UHGV virus genome: UHGV-0119765
Reading direction: 5' to 3' (one strand)
From: a virus
DNA length: 26,581 bases
Shown here: positions 3,803 to 9,881 of the stretch, piece by piece
How the letters are laid out: every line of letters begins with the position of its first letter
Position numbering within the stretch: the stretch's first letter is position 1
Program-made: the position numbers and the translations under genes
Notes under the pieces: model-generated
The model's database searches: none
What the model saw: the letters and a program-made list of their open reading frames with translations, nothing else
Told to the model about the DNA's origin: nothing

Positions 3803-4043
3803 TGGTTGCCTCCTGCTTTTCTGCCTTCAACACCATGCGAGAACCATCATCCAGCTCCCACGCGATCTCACCACCTTCAGCCATGACCAGTCGCCACACC
3901 AATTGAGCAGCCTCATTGGTAACATCACGACCTGGATCATTGCCAACGCGCATACGTCCACCTTCAACATCGCGCATTTTTGCCAGCATGATAGTTTTTG
4001 ATAGCGGTGAAAAACCAAGCTGTAGTCGTGCTGAATTACTCAC
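3789..4043 (-). CDS. Hypothetical protein (84 aa)
   Basis: GTG start at 4043 overlapping the upstream stop (GTGA), preceded by AGGAGGcaacca. The track ORF (3789..4064) extends further 5' with no RBS. Confidence 0.5.
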
Positions 4044-5034: not shown

Positions 5035-5742
5035 CTATGCCGCCTGTTTTAGTTCGTTAACTCTGATGTTCATTACCTGAACGCATTTAGCCTGCGCCTC
5101 CTCGTTGCCAGCCATTAATTGCCAGTCACGCTGATAACGCTCGATGAGTTTTTTCTTGTCAGTTTCTGTTGACGCATAATCGCTGAAGTCTTTCAGGATT
5201 TGTTCGCAGTCAACCGATGGAGATTTCTGGTTGGTATTTTCTGGTGATGGTTTGTTATCTGATGCTGGGATTGCCCATCCCGGCAGCGATGGAGGGGACC
5301 AGTAAAATCCTGTTCCATCCTTCAGTTTTGCCCTGTGCCACCCCTGCTTTTTATCGAGAGATGTTTGTGCGAAACCTTCCTCAAGGTTATACAGATACCG
5401 ACCGATTCCCCACTGAACGGCAGCGCGCTTCATTGCACCGGAACGACCACCTTTGACGGCTTCTACCTGCGTGTTTTCAGCAGCATCCCATTTGGTTACC
5501 CATTCGGAATCAATCTTTATTGATATGCCGCATTCAACTCCGCCGTTGTTGGGAATATCGCGGTATTCATTGCGCCATCCTGCTTTGCCACAAACATCGT
5601 CCAGGCGTTTCATGATTGCCCTGTTCGTTACATAAGCCAGCACCATAGCCCATACCTTGCCATCGCGTGTTTTACCGCTTTGCTGTATTCGCCATTCGAT
5701 ATCTTCAGGGCAGAATGGCTCATCGAATTTGTTCAAATCCAT
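5035..5742 (-). CDS. Rad52/Sak-like single-strand annealing protein
   Basis: 235 aa. Directly upstream of and abutting ssb. N-terminal region (GKTRDGKVWAMVLAYVTNRAIMKRLDDVCGKAGWRNEY...VQWGIGRYLYNL) resembles the phage Rad52-family annealing proteins. AGGTGA RBS. Confidence 0.75.
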   Translation of the reverse strand: MDLNKFDEPFCPEDIEWRIQQSGKTRDGKVWAMVLAYVTNRAIMKRLDDVCGKAGWRNEYRDIPNNGGVECGISIKIDSEWVTKWDAAENTQVEAVKGGRSGAMKRAAVQWGIGRYLYNLEEGFAQTSLDKKQGWHRAKLKDGTGFYWSPPSLPGWAIPASDNKPSPENTNQKSPSVDCEQILKDFSDYASTETDKKKLIERYQRDWQLMAGNEEAQAKCVQVMNIRVNELKQAA

Positions 5743-5841
5743 AATTCACCTCAGAATGGACACGGCCCAAGGAAATAACGCTGATTTAATACTTCGACTC
5801 GGGACAAATTAAGGCATACCCGCATTCCTTCGCGGTCGCCA

Positions 5842-6000
5842 TTATGGCGATACCAGAGAGCTTTCTGCGTGTACATGCGTCTCTGTAACTTGCTCTCCTT
5901 CACTGTGGTTGCAAGTGACATGAATATCTCCTTCGTTGCCGATTAATTCTTTTATCTGACGAATGAATTCTTCGTCTGACCAGTTATCCGTAAAACTCAT
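5842..6000 (-). CDS. Hypothetical small protein (52 aa)
   Basis: ATG at 6000 overlaps the upstream stop (ATGA coupling); MSFTDNWSDEEFIRQIKELIGNEGD... The track ORF starts 10 codons earlier. Confidence 0.4.
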   Translation of the reverse strand: MSFTDNWSDEEFIRQIKELIGNEGDIHVTCNHSEGEQVTETHVHAESSLVSP

Positions 6001-6167
6001 GGACGGCCTTGTTGTTTCAAAATATCCCAAAGCTTTTCGAGCAAACTTTTCATTCTTGGTTGTTTAAAGTCTGCTCCGGTTAAAATATTTTTTCGTGAAT
6101 GCTGTACCGATAAAATCGGGTTGAAAGGGCGAACCGATGCCGCCCCTGCAATAGCGAACTGTTGCAT
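5997..6167 (-). CDS. cIII: cIII-like small regulator (56 aa)
   Basis: ATG at 6167 with a strong AGGAG RBS. MQQFAIAG...KLWDILKQ resembles lambda CIII (MQYAIAG...RLIDILNQ) in sequence and in its position in the leftward early operon. Similarity is partial. Confidence 0.5.
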   Translation of the reverse strand: MQQFAIAGAASVRPFNPILSVQHSRKNILTGADFKQPRMKSLLEKLWDILKQQGRP

Positions 6168-6350
6168 AGGATGCTCCTTCTGTTTGATTGCATAACGAAA
6201 ACGCCTCGAGTGAAGCGTTATTGGTATGCATATAAAAAGGCCCCCACATCGGAGGGCAAAGAAGATTTCCAATAATCAGAACAAGTCGGCTCCTGTTTAG
6301 TTACGAGCGACATTGCTCACATAGCAGACTCGTAAATCTGCTATAGGCGC

Positions 6351-6509
6351 TTATTCGCATCGCATGACAACATCAAATTTTTCGAGATTACTTTGTCGCA
6401 ACAATCCTTCTTCTACTCGGTCAGCTTTTCTATAATTATCAAATTCGAAATGTTTAATTACTTCTTTTGTTTCTCGCTCTATAACTTCAACGATGTATCT
6501 CTTATTCAT
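6351..6509 (-). CDS. Hypothetical small protein (52 aa)
   Basis: Not in the ORF track. ATG at 6509 overlaps the upstream stop (TAATG) and follows AGGTGA; MNKRYIVEVIERETKEVIKHFEFDNYRKADRVEEGLLRQSNLEKFDVVMRCE. AT-rich. Confidence 0.45.
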   Translation of the reverse strand: MNKRYIVEVIERETKEVIKHFEFDNYRKADRVEEGLLRQSNLEKFDVVMRCE

Positions 6510-6778
6510 TACTCATCACCTAGGGCTTTTTTGATAGCTTCGCGAGCCTTATTAACAGCTCCATACCATTCTGGATATGTTGTCGTTGTTCTATTTTCGG
6601 CTTGCTTAAGTAATAACTGAAGTGCTTCAAGTAAATCCGGTGCAGCCATAGCCAACCTTCCATTTGCTACGGCCTCTTCTGTTTCTTTACCGGATAGGGC
6701 CATTCCCGGGTGTGAAAATAAAATTAAGCCTGCAAAATTGGCTTCTCGCCAATTTTTCCTAGTACCTTTAAATTCCAT
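6509..6778 (-). CDS. Hypothetical protein (89 aa)
   Basis: ATG at 6778 preceded by GAGG. The track ORF's GTG at 6814 sits immediately after the upstream stop with no RBS, so the ATG is preferred. Confidence 0.5.
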   Translation of the reverse strand: MEFKGTRKNWREANFAGLILFSHPGMALSGKETEEAVANGRLAMAAPDLLEALQLLLKQAENRTTTTYPEWYGAVNKAREAIKKALGDE

Positions 6779-6816
6779 GTTAGCCTCTGTTGTTATGCCA
6801 AAAATAAAGGCCACCG

Positions 6817-7017
6817 TCAGGCAGCCTTGTTATTCTGTTTACCAAGTTCTCTGGCAATCATTGCCGTAGTTCGTATTGCCCATTTATCGACATACTTCCC
6901 ATCCTCCATTACAGGAAGCATTTCTTCAGGCTTAACCATGCATTCCGATTGCAGTTTGCATCCATTGCATCGCTTGAATTGTCCACACCATTGATTTTTA
7001 TCAATAGTCGTAGTCAT
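6817..7017 (-). CDS. Hypothetical small Cys-rich protein (66 aa)
   Basis: ATG at 7017 with AGGA upstream. Four cysteines in a C-x5-C-x2-C-x5-C arrangement (CGQFKRCNGCKLQSEC) suggest a small zinc-binding protein. Confidence 0.55.
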   Translation of the reverse strand: MTTTIDKNQWCGQFKRCNGCKLQSECMVKPEEMLPVMEDGKYVDKWAIRTTAMIARELGKQNNKAA

Positions 7018-7095
7018 AAGGATAGTCCTGGTATTGCTCCATCACATCCTGCGGATGCTCTTCGAACTCTTCAAATTCTTCTTCCATATCTCACC

Positions 7096-7422
7096 TCAAA
7101 TAAGTGGTTTGCTGCCTAATTTCATTTTCTGGCGACCAACACAAGTCACACCCATTTCACTGCGTGGCTTGCTGTACCATGTGCGCTGATTCTTGCGCTC
7201 AATACGTTGCAGGTTGCTTTCAATCTGTTCGTGGTATTCAGCCAGCACCGTAAGGTCTATCGGATTCAGTGCGCTTTCTACTCGTGATTTCGGTTTGCGA
7301 TTCAGCGAGAGAATAGGGCGGTTAACTGGTTTTGCGCTTACCCCAACCAACAGGGGATTTGCTGCTTTCCATTGAGCCTGTTTCTCTGCGCGACGTTCGC
7401 GGCGGCGTGTTTGTGCATCCAT
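7096..7422 (-). CDS. N: Antitermination protein N (lambda type)
   Basis: 108-aa ORF beginning MDAQTRRRERRAEKQAQWKAANPLLVG, the arginine-rich boxB-binding motif of lambda N. Near-identical to lambda N over most of its length as I remember it. Confidence 0.95.
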   Translation of the reverse strand: MDAQTRRRERRAEKQAQWKAANPLLVGVSAKPVNRPILSLNRKPKSRVESALNPIDLTVLAEYHEQIESNLQRIERKNQRTWYSKPRSEMGVTCVGRQKMKLGSKPLI

Positions 7423-7620
7423 CTGGATTCTCCTGTCAGTTAGCTTTGGTGATTGGATGGCCGGCGCTGAACCCCGGCTTACTGGTTAGAGCGCCCGCAC
7501 TACCAGTGACGCTGTCTTGAGGCGCAGATTGGTTACTGCTTGCCATGAGCGCTGTTTATACATTGGTCGAGCATCAGCCTGCTCATTCATCCAATCCCAA
7601 AGCCTTCTGCTTTGAATGCT

Positions 7621-7651
7621 GCCCTTCTTCAGGGCTAAATTTTTAAGAGCC
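7621..7651 (-). promoter_or_regulatory. nutL site (boxA-like plus boxB hairpin)
   Basis: Reverse complement reads GCTCTTAAAAATTTAGCCCTGAAGAAGGGCA: a boxA-like element and the canonical lambda nutL boxB stem-loop GCCCTGAAGAAGGGC. Lies about 35 nt downstream of the proposed pL start and 200 nt upstream of N. Confidence 0.8.
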
Positions 7652-7690
7652 TCACCTTCAATGGTGGTCAGTGCGTCCTGCTGATGGCTA

Positions 7691-7720
7691 AATAGTACGA
7701 TTTGTACTTTATCGAGTCAA
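7691..7720 (-). promoter_or_regulatory. pL-like early-left promoter with overlapping operator palindrome
   Basis: On the minus strand: -35 TTGACT, 17-nt spacer, -10 TACTAT. An AGTAC-N5-GTACT palindrome overlaps the spacer and -10, as expected for an OL operator. Confidence 0.6.
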
Positions 7721-7783
7721 TACAAAATGTTCTAAATATAATTAGTTTTTTATAACGCTTTGTATTTAATGGGTTTATATTTT

Positions 7784-7813
7784 GGAAAAAGAAAACCCGG
7801 CGCTGAGGCCGGG
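7784..7813 (-). terminator. Rho-independent terminator ending the cI / membrane-protein transcript
   Basis: Stem CCCGGC / GCCGGG with a 6-nt loop, followed on the minus strand by UUUUCUUUUUCC. Positioned between the 7836 stop and pL, like lambda's terminator after rexB. Confidence 0.7.
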
Positions 7814-7835
7814 CTTTTAGGGCGGGTTGATGCTC

Positions 7836-8873
7836 TTAACACCCTTTAATGGGAGTTGAGATACGAGATATCATTGCTGATTCAATTATCCCACTTCTGA
7901 CTTTATAGTCACCAAAAAGAGAAATTGAATCAGAAAGTTTCATGCTTTCATAAAGAAGGTCTGTTTCGTCTTTATCTATAAAATCAGTAACAACATAAGC
8001 AGGGAAGGTATAATCAGTGCCAACCTTTTTGCAAGTTACTGTCAGCTTTCCATCTGATTTTTTAATGCCTTCAATTTCAACTTCTTCTGTAAGTTCTTTG
8101 TTGGAAAGTTTCTCACGTGGGTTTCTTATCATTTCGGCAATATCACGCTTATCTAATTCGATCTTTGCCATACCATTAAACTCTACTCTGTCAGCATCTG
8201 AGACGCCTTTCAACACCCCAACCACAGCATTTGAAGTATGGGATTGAATTCCCTCTGAAATCTCCCTCGCAGCTGCTGTGGCAGTATGAGCAGAAAGAAC
8301 TTCAACCATGCCATCTTTAAGCAGTCTCATTTGCTCAGTTTGGCTGTTGGTGTCGTTGAGGCCTTCATCAATCTCAAGTTGCTTCATTTTTTCTATATGG
8401 CGATCTTTTTGTCTCGACTTTATCAGCCAAGCCCCAGTAAGGATCAGCGATATGAGAACGAGACATATAGCTTTCTCTGTTCCAGTCATACCTTGTGTTG
8501 ACCTCTCAAATGCAACACCAAATGAATCAATTACATCCTTTATAGCAACAAGTAGGTCAGTACAGCCAGGCTCAACTTTAAAAATTATCTCAAGCTCTTT
8601 TCTATCACTGTCTTTCAAATGCTTGAGATTATCCGTTCCTCGCCTTACAAGCATAAACGCTTTATAAAGTTCGGTCTGAAACTCGCACATACCTTGAGCT
8701 AAAGAGGACGGTATCGTCCCATTATACCGGTCTGGATCACCATAAATCTTGAAACTTACGTGGTTAACAAAATCAATTTTAATGTCATTGATAGATATTT
8801 GCTGACCTTTCTGAACTCTTTCTAAAAACTCTGAAACGTCGCTTAATGATGAGATATCAATTTGATTGTCCAT
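7836..8873 (-). CDS. Unknown single-pass membrane protein at the rexAB-equivalent position (moron; candidate exclusion/defence gene)
   Basis: Long uninterrupted ORF (345 aa from the ATG at 8873; 355 aa from the alternative TTG at 8903, which overlaps the cI stop). Same strand and immediately downstream of cI. One central hydrophobic helix (KAICLVLISLILTGAWLIKS) flanked by two soluble halves. AT-richer than flanking lambda-like DNA (about 35% GC in a 60-nt sample). No family recognised. Confidence 0.8.
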   Translation of the reverse strand: MDNQIDISSLSDVSEFLERVQKGQQISINDIKIDFVNHVSFKIYGDPDRYNGTIPSSLAQGMCEFQTELYKAFMLVRRGTDNLKHLKDSDRKELEIIFKVEPGCTDLLVAIKDVIDSFGVAFERSTQGMTGTEKAICLVLISLILTGAWLIKSRQKDRHIEKMKQLEIDEGLNDTNSQTEQMRLLKDGMVEVLSAHTATAAAREISEGIQSHTSNAVVGVLKGVSDADRVEFNGMAKIELDKRDIAEMIRNPREKLSNKELTEEVEIEGIKKSDGKLTVTCKKVGTDYTFPAYVVTDFIDKDETDLLYESMKLSDSISLFGDYKVRSGIIESAMISRISTPIKGC

Positions 8874-8895
8874 ATCTTTTCTCAATGTTATTGTG

Positions 8896-9555
8896 TTAAC
8901 CAAACGTCTCTTCTGGCCACTGGCTGGCGATAACTTTCCCTACAACGGAACAGCTATCATTGCATGGGATCATTGGATATTGCGGGTTTAGTGGTTGTAG
9001 GAACACCTGACCGCTATCCCTGATCAGTTTCTTGAAGGTAAACTCGTCACCACCAAGTCTGGCTATGCAGAAATCACCTGGCTCAACAGCCTGCTCAGGG
9101 TCAACGAGAATTAACATCCCGTCAGGAAAGCTTGGCTTGGATCCTGTTGGTGCGGTCATGGAATTACCTTCAACTTCAAGCCAGAACGCACAATCACTAG
9201 CTTTTTTGGTTGTGCTGACCCATCTCTCCGCATCACCTTTGGTAAAGGTTCTAAGCTCAGGCGAGAACATCCCGGCCTGAACATGAGAAAAAACAGGGTA
9301 CTCATGTTGTTTTTTAACGGGGGCAGATGAGTATTCGCCAACAGGTGAAAATGTACCGTCGTGGTTGAATGAGACGTTATCAATACCAAGGTATTTAAAC
9401 ACCACACCAATCTCGTCAAGAGATGGATGACGAGATCCGCGCAACCAGTGACCAATTCCACCCTGCGTCATACCAAGCTCTTCAGCTAACTTCTCTTGAG
9501 TTATGCCGAGCTCTTTCATTCTGGATCTAGCCAGTTCATACCATTTCATTTTCAT
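8896..9555 (-). CDS. cI: CI-type prophage repressor (LexA/S24 peptidase fold)
   Basis: ATG at 9555 ([37 protein letters not shown]...). The C-terminal ~130 aa ([20 protein letters not shown]...[12 protein letters not shown]) match the lambda cI C-terminal domain; the N-terminal HTH domain is different. No SD upstream, consistent with a leaderless PRM transcript. The track ORF extends 54 codons further 5' without support. Confidence 0.9.
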
Positions 9556-9665
9556 ACCATTATTATTACGCTCTGTACTAAAACCATCCATGCACAAGAT
9601 GTATTTTTGTTTGCATTCTAAAAGTACATATCGTATTATTGTTTCATGGTTACTATGGAGGGCAT
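9556..9665. promoter_or_regulatory. OR region: divergent PR (cro) and PRM (cI) promoters with operator sites
   Basis: PR on the plus strand: -35 TTGCAT (9611-9616), 17-nt spacer, -10 TATTAT (9634-9639), GGAGG RBS before cro. GTAC-containing partial palindromes resemble the OL palindrome. PRM placement is tentative. Confidence 0.65.
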
Positions 9666-9881
9666 ATGAGCAACCTACGAAAATATCGAGAGTCACTGAA
9701 TATCTCTCAAACAACACTTGCTAAGGCAGTTGGATGCACACAGGGAGCTATCGGACATTGGGAATCTGGTCGTCGCTTCCCAGACCTTAAAACATGCCGT
9801 GCTCTTGTTGAGTGCCTAAACAAGTTAGGCGCAAAAGTCAGTCTTGATGACGTGTTCCCGCCGGAACACAAAGCCGCTTAA
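9666..9881 (+). CDS. cro: Cro-like XRE-family HTH regulator
   Basis: 71 aa from the ATG at 9666 with GGAGG RBS. HTH region [27 protein letters not shown]. Divergent from cI across the operator region. Confidence 0.8.

Follow-up and report, generated by a model that had tools for sequence, protein, structure and literature searches.

Ral, orf28 and two catalogued small-gene families in the early pL region of a lambdoid/P22-like phage, with evidence for selection on the Orf28 peptide

Introduction

What does a temperate phage keep in the first positions of its pL operon, immediately behind the antiterminator gene N? In lambdoid phages this slot often holds anti-restriction or host-takeover functions, with ral of lambda as an example. 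A preliminary description of the UHGV virus genome UHGV-0119765 (26,581 nucleotides; hereafter the window, meaning the whole stretch that was analysed) proposed that the slot is filled here by four small, unrecognised open reading frames (ORFs): a 66-aa protein with four cysteines, an 89-aa protein, a 52-aa protein and a 28-aa acidic peptide, the last of which was suspected of not being real owing to its overlap with the 66-aa gene. The lambda precedent gives the question its weight. With Ral, type IA systems modify the first strand of unmodified DNA faster, which raises phage survival (PMC12707154), and ral is conditionally essential where the host type I system is active (PMC10695390); how Ral, and Lar of the Rac prophage, work at the molecular level is described as unknown (PMC3177214). 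Here we ask what the four ORFs are, whether the acidic ORF encodes a protein, and which functions the cluster may carry.

Results

The coordinates, minus-strand orientation and Shine-Dalgarno sites of all four ORFs could be read from the sequence as the preliminary description had given them, including the GAGGTGA and AGGTGA sites and the TAATG coupling of the 89-aa and 52-aa genes. The proposed minus-strand order is N, the 28-aa ORF (orf28), the 66-aa ORF (ral), a predicted terminator, the 89-aa gene (Y8K6 family), the 52-aa gene, further predicted terminators and cIII. Upstream of the cluster, N (7096-7422, minus strand, 108 aa) matches Pfam N36 (E 1.5e-26) and PHROG 271, and its product shares ~99-100% identity with the N proteins of mEp043 and other prophages; a pattern scan placed a pL-like promoter at 7720-7692 on the same strand. 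The lower boundary is set by cIII (5997-6167, minus strand, 56 aa), the next recognisable pL gene, which was identified by PHROG 550 ('CIII anti-termination'; E 3.9e-22, residues 36-91 of a longer ORF) and is followed by two small genes (PHROGs 2123 and 1723); kil, a Rad52-like annealing protein, SSB and the P22-type anti-RecBCD protein Abc2 also lie downstream. Each of the four small ORFs is covered over its full length by a PHROG profile (E 1.5e-39, 5.4e-17, 6.7e-49 and 7.1e-19). The reading frame of each is also conserved among related phages, which had been suggested as a test of the small ORFs and which all four frames withstood; none of the four is a mere chance ORF. Of the profile searches, likewise suggested for anti-defence proteins, Pfam returned Ral (PF11058) for the 66-aa ORF, and PADLOC-DB gave no match at E up to 1 for any of the four proteins.

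Signals for transcription were sought by pattern scan. Within the cluster the minus strand showed no promoter-like site, and terminator-like hairpins were found on that strand at 6798-6828 (AAGGCTGCC-TGAC-GGTGGCCTT followed by a T run, spanning the ral stop codon) and, as a pair, at 6200-6257 in the interval between the 52-aa gene and cIII. The first of these is also conserved in lambda, as judged from the DNA alignment. If lambda biology is taken as the guide, transcripts would initiate at pL, N would then antiterminate polymerase, and the hairpins, which we infer to be terminators, would be read through; insofar as the N-modified polymerase behaves as assumed, the four small genes would thus all be early lytic genes. 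An Rfam search of 5700-7900 returned no RNA families, so that the conservation of orf28 described below is not attributable to a known RNA. The whole window resembles P22-like E. coli phages (HZ41, IME10 and APC_JM3.2), the likeness being distributed in mosaic pieces, and the region is very probably the standard early-left (pL) accessory part of a temperate E. coli phage of mosaic, lambdoid/P22-like make-up, with expression and gene roles as proposed here.

The 66-aa ORF (6817-7017, minus strand) is ral. Its product matches Pfam PF11058 (Ral) from residue 1 to 66 on profile positions 1-66 (E 6.3e-48; 160.7 bits against a cut-off of 25), it also matches PHROG 1055, and it is identical to lambda Ral (NP_040622) at 65 of 66 residues (98%). 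The slot therefore holds ral itself, not novel substitutes for it; the expectation that the position behind N carries an anti-restriction function was correct, and the ORF that had been passed over as unrecognised is the very example that had been cited in its support. Within the protein, the cysteine pattern C11-x5-C17-x2-C20-x5-C26 forms the motif W-C-x5-C-x-G-C-x5-C, and its four cysteines, which are invariant in an alignment of divergent Rals, probably hold a zinc ion. The motif is present in 49 of the 61 full-length Ral cluster representatives, the exceptions being fusions, truncations, or sequences that are lambda-like apart from a single substitution. Family members were found in Enterobacterales only. 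PF11058 is the sole Pfam match of the window protein at E up to 0.1, the Lar family (PF14354) being unmatched, and the window carries no Lar gene. A search of PDB sequences with Ral gave no match, Ral structures being absent from the PDB sequence set.

Comparison with lambda extends this identity from the protein to the locus. The two Rals are alike in length, in the four cysteines, in position within the pL operon and in the overlap with orf28, and differ by one substitution (F34L in the window protein); on the lambda map ral occupies 34087-34287 and orf28 34271-34357, likewise an overlap of 17 nt. DNA homology to lambda runs from ~12 nt before the orf28 ATG through the post-ral hairpin, and the flanks on both sides differ. 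In lambda, sieB lies on the opposite strand between N and orf28, whereas in the window, as in most related loci, N abuts orf28, the orf28-ral pair adjoining N directly because sieB is absent. The end of N and the start of ral are 79 nt apart, with orf28 between them, an order that matches lambda and divergent prophages. On the other side, ral is followed by the Y8K6-family gene in the window and by ea10 in lambda. By homology, given the 98% identity to lambda Ral, the window protein would alleviate restriction: it would speed the methylation of unmodified DNA by restriction-modification enzymes of type IA (EcoKI/EcoBI class), and a larger share of phage genomes would then be modified, not cut.

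The acidic ORF (7001-7087, minus strand; MEEEFEEFEEHPQDVMEQYQDYPYDYDY) is equally an annotated gene and not an unrecognised one. All 28 residues are identical to lambda orf28 (NP_040623, lambdap47), from which the window gene differs at three nucleotides, all synonymous, with the protein unchanged, and the product matches PHROG 16060 with residues 1-28 on profile 1-28 (E 7.1e-19). Orf28 is tyrosine-rich and contains 12 acidic, no basic and 7 aromatic residues among its 28, for a net charge of ~-12. Its Shine-Dalgarno site, GAGGTGA at 7091-7097, lies 3 nt ahead of the ATG and overlaps the N stop codon (TGA, 7096-7098). At its other end it shares 17 nt (7001-7017) with ral in a different frame, as had been correctly noted, and the probable Shine-Dalgarno site of ral (AGGA, 7026-7029, 8 nt before the ral ATG) falls within orf28 codons 20-21.

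Ral loci were gathered from viral, genome and assembly collections for comparison of orf28. In nearly all of those examined, down to 52% Ral identity, an orf28-like ORF overlaps the start of ral, including beside the Ral homologues of Providencia, Leclercia, Yokenella, Erwinia and Pantoea. The most divergent Rals so accompanied (52-58% identical to lambda Ral) come from Leclercia, Yokenella, Erwinia, Pantoea and a metagenome, and at this distance the peptide core EHPxDxMxQYQDYPY(D/E)(Y/F)DY is conserved more tightly than Ral; in one such locus (L317) the peptide is identical at 23 of 28 residues, against 52% for Ral. The collection comprised 291 copies, 53 distinct nucleotide versions and 33 peptides. 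Selection statistics, limited to the 22 codons outside the ral overlap and with pN/pS calculated pairwise, indicate: (i) variable sites concentrated at the third codon position (6, 8 and 21 at positions 1, 2 and 3, respectively), and (ii) a pN/pS of 0.17 in the orf28 frame compared to 2.16 and 1.69 in the other two. Length varies by whole codons only (peptides of 22-28 aa), and nearly all of the 291 copies have GAGGTGA or AAGGTGA ahead of orf28. Judged by these substitution patterns, orf28 is a protein-coding micro-gene under strong purifying selection for its peptide, and the suspicion that it may not be real can be set aside. Its conservation is partly shared with the ral Shine-Dalgarno site and with the N-terminal codons of ral. 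One synonymous site is constrained: of 20 distinct variants, 19 have CAG at codon Q20, which fits an AGGA Shine-Dalgarno site of ral inside orf28, whereas at Q18 15 have CAA and 5 CAG.

To what extent does orf28 depend on ral? A degenerate DNA pattern for QYQDYPY(D/E) retrieved 120 viral loci, in 105 of which ral is intact. In ~10 of the other 15, ral carries an out-of-frame internal deletion between GGRCAAT repeats and orf28 is intact; the rest are contig-end cuts or point changes in the cysteine motif, together with a single locus (L286) in which the orf28-like ORF is followed directly by the terminator and preceded by an ORF that matches PF14354 (Lar). A further match to the orf28 motif (L338) was rejected as a chance match within a 312-aa gene on the opposite strand. 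Lar, or RalR, of the Rac prophage (PF14354) is reported to resemble Ral in alleviating EcoKI restriction and enhancing modification (PMC3177214), and the two are non-homologous, with 24% identity, and described as 'not related' (PMC4041452). The Lar-family gene beside orf28 (L286 and L320) scores 31.6 bits against PF14354, compared to a cut-off of 28.6, and the order Lar, orf28, terminator, with no ral, was found in 16 loci (9 viral and 7 metagenomic), the operon being of pL type and containing N-like and cIII-like genes. In this one phage lineage a Lar-family gene directly precedes the orf28-like gene. The sequence past the orf28 stop codon (GGCTGCCTAA and the hairpin) corresponds to the last ral codons and the terminator, and ral has thus apparently been deleted cleanly. 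The ral-less copies of orf28 have a pS of 0.55 and a pN of 0.03, a ratio of 0.05; selection acts on orf28 even without ral, and the peptide itself thus has a function. At least two further loci (L342 and L351) contain an orf28-like ORF but neither Ral nor Lar.

What might this function be? Judged by gene neighbourhood only, Orf28 most likely shares an early task with Ral and Lar, in counter-restriction or host takeover. We tentatively propose, more specifically, an independently selected acidic micro-protein that helps to overcome type I restriction, either as a cofactor of Ral/Lar or as a decoy for the enzyme; if true, such a role would help to explain why the mechanism of Ral and Lar has so long escaped elucidation. 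A closely related possibility, which we regard with the same reserve, is that Orf28 is a working partner in alleviation, binding Ral/Lar or directly the type I enzyme (for example, as a short DNA-like or tail-like decoy) and being required for the full effect. Consistent with partnership are the linkage of orf28, always at one place in the operon, to the mutually unrelated Ral (PF11058) and Lar (PF14354), the opposite charges of Orf28 (~-12) and Ral (~+2.5), and a mechanism for Ral/Lar that is still described as unknown (PMC3177214). However, orf28 stands alone in the two or more loci mentioned above, and the Lar-linked copies look descended from an orf28-ral unit after deletion of ral, so that the Lar link may be a historical accident. 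In addition, no phenotype has been reported: lambda orf28 is listed as a non-essential hypothetical protein, and its knock-down had no plaque phenotype in a host lacking type I restriction (PMC10695390). Dedicated studies of orf28 were not found in the literature searched. The company that orf28 keeps with two unrelated restriction-alleviation proteins is suggestive and possibly historical.

The other explanation for orf28 would dispense with a functional protein altogether: translation of orf28 would act only in cis, as a leader that opens the mRNA and supplies ribosomes and a Shine-Dalgarno site to ral. The 17-nt overlap, the synonymous constraint on AGGA at codons 20-21 (CAG in 19 of 20 variants) and the nearly constant adjacency of orf28 to ral would all be expected of a leader. 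Nonetheless, amino-acid conservation extends through codons 2-23, well away from ral, at the pN/pS of 0.17 given above, and the peptide is more conserved than Ral where Ral identity has fallen to 52-58%. The ral-less copies weigh heavily against the idea: orf28 is intact in the 16 loci without ral, at a pN/pS of 0.05, and also beside broken ral. A leader without a functional product is thus largely refuted, and we consider it improbable.

Beyond the post-ral hairpin lies the 89-aa gene (6509-6778, minus strand), which begins with ATG behind the Shine-Dalgarno site AGAGG (6784-6788). Its family assignment was read by proxy from the annotation of homologues, and we take its product to be a member of the XkdD/Y8K6 family (PF27050). 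All 81 of 81 homologues, one of them 98% identical, carry the precomputed entry PF27050 (Phage_P22_Y8K6), and PGAP labels a 98.9% identical E. coli protein 'XkdD/Y8K6 family phage-associated protein'; the prophage of that relative has the order N, ral, Y8K6, 52-aa gene, as in the window. The family N-terminus MEFKGT confirms the ATG at 6778. A 101-aa version starting from GTG at 6814 was rejected on account of this N-terminus and of the position of the GTG in the terminator stem. Invariant columns in the family are F3, K4, G5, T6 and W10, and A45, A46, P47, L49 and L50. A profile search at E up to 0.001 found 33,769 representative clusters, nearly all stand-alone proteins of ~85-110 aa and mostly with a single matched stretch. 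The AlphaFold2 (AF2) model of the 89-aa protein (pLDDT 86.6) has a helical hairpin after a sheet of three strands. Among relatives the two halves are exchanged independently, the N-terminal half being swapped and the C-terminal half constant, with AAAPDLLEAL at the junction. Compared with P22 Y8K6 and Bacillus PBSX XkdD, the window protein would, by the same proxy, be a full-length member of ~90 aa, and it carries FKGT..W and AAAPDLLEAL; its N-terminal variant has no counterpart above 62% identity in a deposited phage genome, E. coli prophages being the only place where it was found. Of 180 distinct ral contexts, 29 (including Pantoea) have a Y8K6-family gene no more than 1.3 kb downstream, and such a gene is thus one of several alternative cassettes at this position. 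The window contains no second Y8K6 gene (paralogue). A PDB sequence search with the Y8K6 profile gave a single match (E 0.3), and a literature search on XkdD returned nothing relevant.

The 52-aa gene (6351-6509, minus strand; Shine-Dalgarno site AGGTGA, 6516-6521) starts within the stop codon of the 89-aa gene (TAATG). Residues 1-52 match PHROG 6949 on profile 1-52 (E 1.5e-39), and the family is small, with 12 clusters in 5.8 billion proteins, all from Enterobacteriaceae (E. coli, Atlantibacter and Cronobacter). The deposited phages with this gene are mEp043, mEp213 and APC_JM3.2 only, and all three likewise carry it as a pair with Y8K6. The AF2 model (pLDDT 94) is beta-beta-alpha-beta; Foldseek against the PDB found no significant fold match for it (best E 0.45). 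In all loci fetched, the gene directly follows another small gene and shares its last codons. The preceding gene is usually a Y8K6 member, and in Cronobacter it is an unrelated 4-Cys mini-protein (CxxC...CxxC), which argues that the pairing is positional rather than specific.

The description of this pair as unrecognised thus holds for function, none being assigned, and fails for family, both proteins being assigned to catalogued ones (PF27050, by proxy, and PHROG 6949). NCBIfam, PADLOC and Pfam (a copy without PF27050) yielded nothing usable for the 89-aa and 52-aa proteins or for ten distant Y8K6 relatives, and neither model had a significant structural or defence-library match. Based on the models and their family distribution, the two appear to be genuine, folded early proteins that form one of several interchangeable cassettes at a mosaic slot. 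Could they act together as a complex, directed against host defences or otherwise serving host takeover? The overlap of stop and start codons (TAATG), the position of the 52-aa gene directly behind a small gene with shared last codons in every locus fetched, and the recurrence of the early-operon place beside ral in E. coli, P22-like Salmonella phages and Pantoea are all compatible with such a pair, as is the swapping of the N-terminal half of the 89-aa family against a constant C-terminal half. Set against this are the lack of likeness to known anti-defence or defence proteins in profile and fold searches, the sheer size of the Y8K6 family (33,769 clusters), most of which lacks a 52-aa gene, and the unrelated partner in Cronobacter. 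Nothing found marks either protein as anti-defence, and we consider a complex of this kind unlikely, if more plausible than the reading that follows. That the pair is instead a moron expressed from the prophage, guarding the lysogen as a toxin-antitoxin or exclusion module, is very improbable: the genes are small, paired and mosaic, and the corresponding region of relatives holds exclusion genes (sieB in lambda), but they lie in pL orientation behind a terminator-like hairpin, have neither their own promoter-like site on the minus strand nor PADLOC matches, and resemble no known toxin or antitoxin fold.

Discussion

The cluster behind N is an ordinary N-antiterminated pL accessory region, of which ral, orf28 and the two catalogued families were already known. 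What goes beyond the databases is the behaviour of orf28, which is strongly constrained, persists without ral and adjoins Lar in one lineage. Orf28 is a cheaply and directly testable lead in the best-studied of phages: a peptide more conserved than Ral that accompanies two unrelated alleviation proteins. It bears on a question that reviews call unresolved, namely by what means Ral and Lar turn type I enzymes towards de novo methylation.

Two kinds of known product invite comparison with the tentative role of Orf28 in overcoming type I restriction. The DNA mimics Ocr and ArdA are folded proteins whose acidic, B-DNA-like surface binds the type I enzyme, and Orf28 is compared with them here by composition alone. 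The T4 peptide Stp, with 26 residues, inhibits the type IC enzyme EcoprrI. Orf28 has no sequence similarity to Stp, and the two differ in charge, Stp being basic and Orf28 strongly acidic; Stp nevertheless sets the precedent for a phage peptide of fewer than 30 residues that acts on a type I restriction enzyme.

Loss and replacement of ral beside orf28

In some viral and metagenome loci, ral, the restriction-alleviation gene of the pL operon, is broken or missing next to orf28, the gene for a 28-aa acidic micro-protein that overlaps its start. In ten loci (L204, L206, L207, L210, L249, L253, L271, L296, L303 and L305), ral carries an internal, out-of-frame deletion between short GGRCAAT repeats (...CAATGGTGTGGRCAAT|ACGAAC...), and orf28 is intact in every one of them. 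The deletion occurs on several distinct haplotypes and is a recurrent or old event. In a single phage lineage (L320-L328, L344-L350 and L353), ral is precisely absent; the gene order is a Lar-family gene (PF14354), an orf28-like gene and then the ral terminator. Here Ral is replaced by Lar, a non-homologous restriction-alleviation family, at the same operon position.

The junction upstream of orf28 also differs in lambda, where sieB lies between N and orf28. The 20 nt located 5′ of lambda orf28 (TCCACTATTTAAGGTGATAT; positions 2416-2440 of the lambda locus, L002) are similar to positions 7088-7110 of the window (CCACTTATTTGAGGTGAGAT), which comprise the 3′ end of N and the Shine-Dalgarno site. 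This likeness suggests that lambda sieB would be an insertion between N and orf28, accompanied by a short duplication of the N end. In a single database protein (P0335), orf28 is fused to Ral (MEEEFEEFEEHPQDD...TTTIDTNQWC...), presumably through a frameshift within the orf28/ral overlap.

Lambda-like sequences in unrelated records

Ral copies 97-98% identical to that of lambda were found in assemblies of unrelated organisms, including Pseudoxanthomonas, Nocardioides, Shewanella, Neobacillus, Chromatium and Kitasatospora (genome-contig matches L004-L019, L022, L024, L025 and L027). Several of these copies lie on contigs of ~48.5 kb with low coverage, and the assemblies look like cases of contamination by lambda DNA. 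Similarly, MW057783.1 (H26; 48,361 bp), titled ‘Campylobacter phage CJLB-4’, was matched by the same four query pieces as lambda with equal scores and carries lambda's gene names; it is probably lambda, either wrongly labelled or present as a contaminant.

Neighbouring genes

In a Cronobacter prophage (L191), the homologue of the 52-aa gene (window 6351-6509, minus strand) is preceded not by the Y8K6-family gene but by a gene (3839-4000) for a 53-aa acidic CxxC...CxxC mini-protein (MDDEVECDVCGKG...CHECYHD...), whose C-terminal junction (...AIGEEE) is the same as in the Y8K6 case.

Elsewhere on the minus strand, the window encodes a phage SSB (4528-5034; Pfam SSB, E 1.5e-36). The acidic tip of SSB is normally C-terminal; here the canonical MDFDDDIPF is followed by 15 further residues, and the tip is therefore not C-terminal. 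The cI-like repressor ORF (8896-9717, minus strand) is listed from a GTG well upstream, which places ~50 extra N-terminal residues ahead of the recognisable HTH part; the true start is probably internal to the listed ORF. Between this gene and pL lies a 355-aa ORF (7836-8903, minus strand) with no match in Pfam or PADLOC. In lambda, rexAB occupies this position, and the ORF is a candidate for an exclusion gene, of unassigned type, that the prophage expresses.
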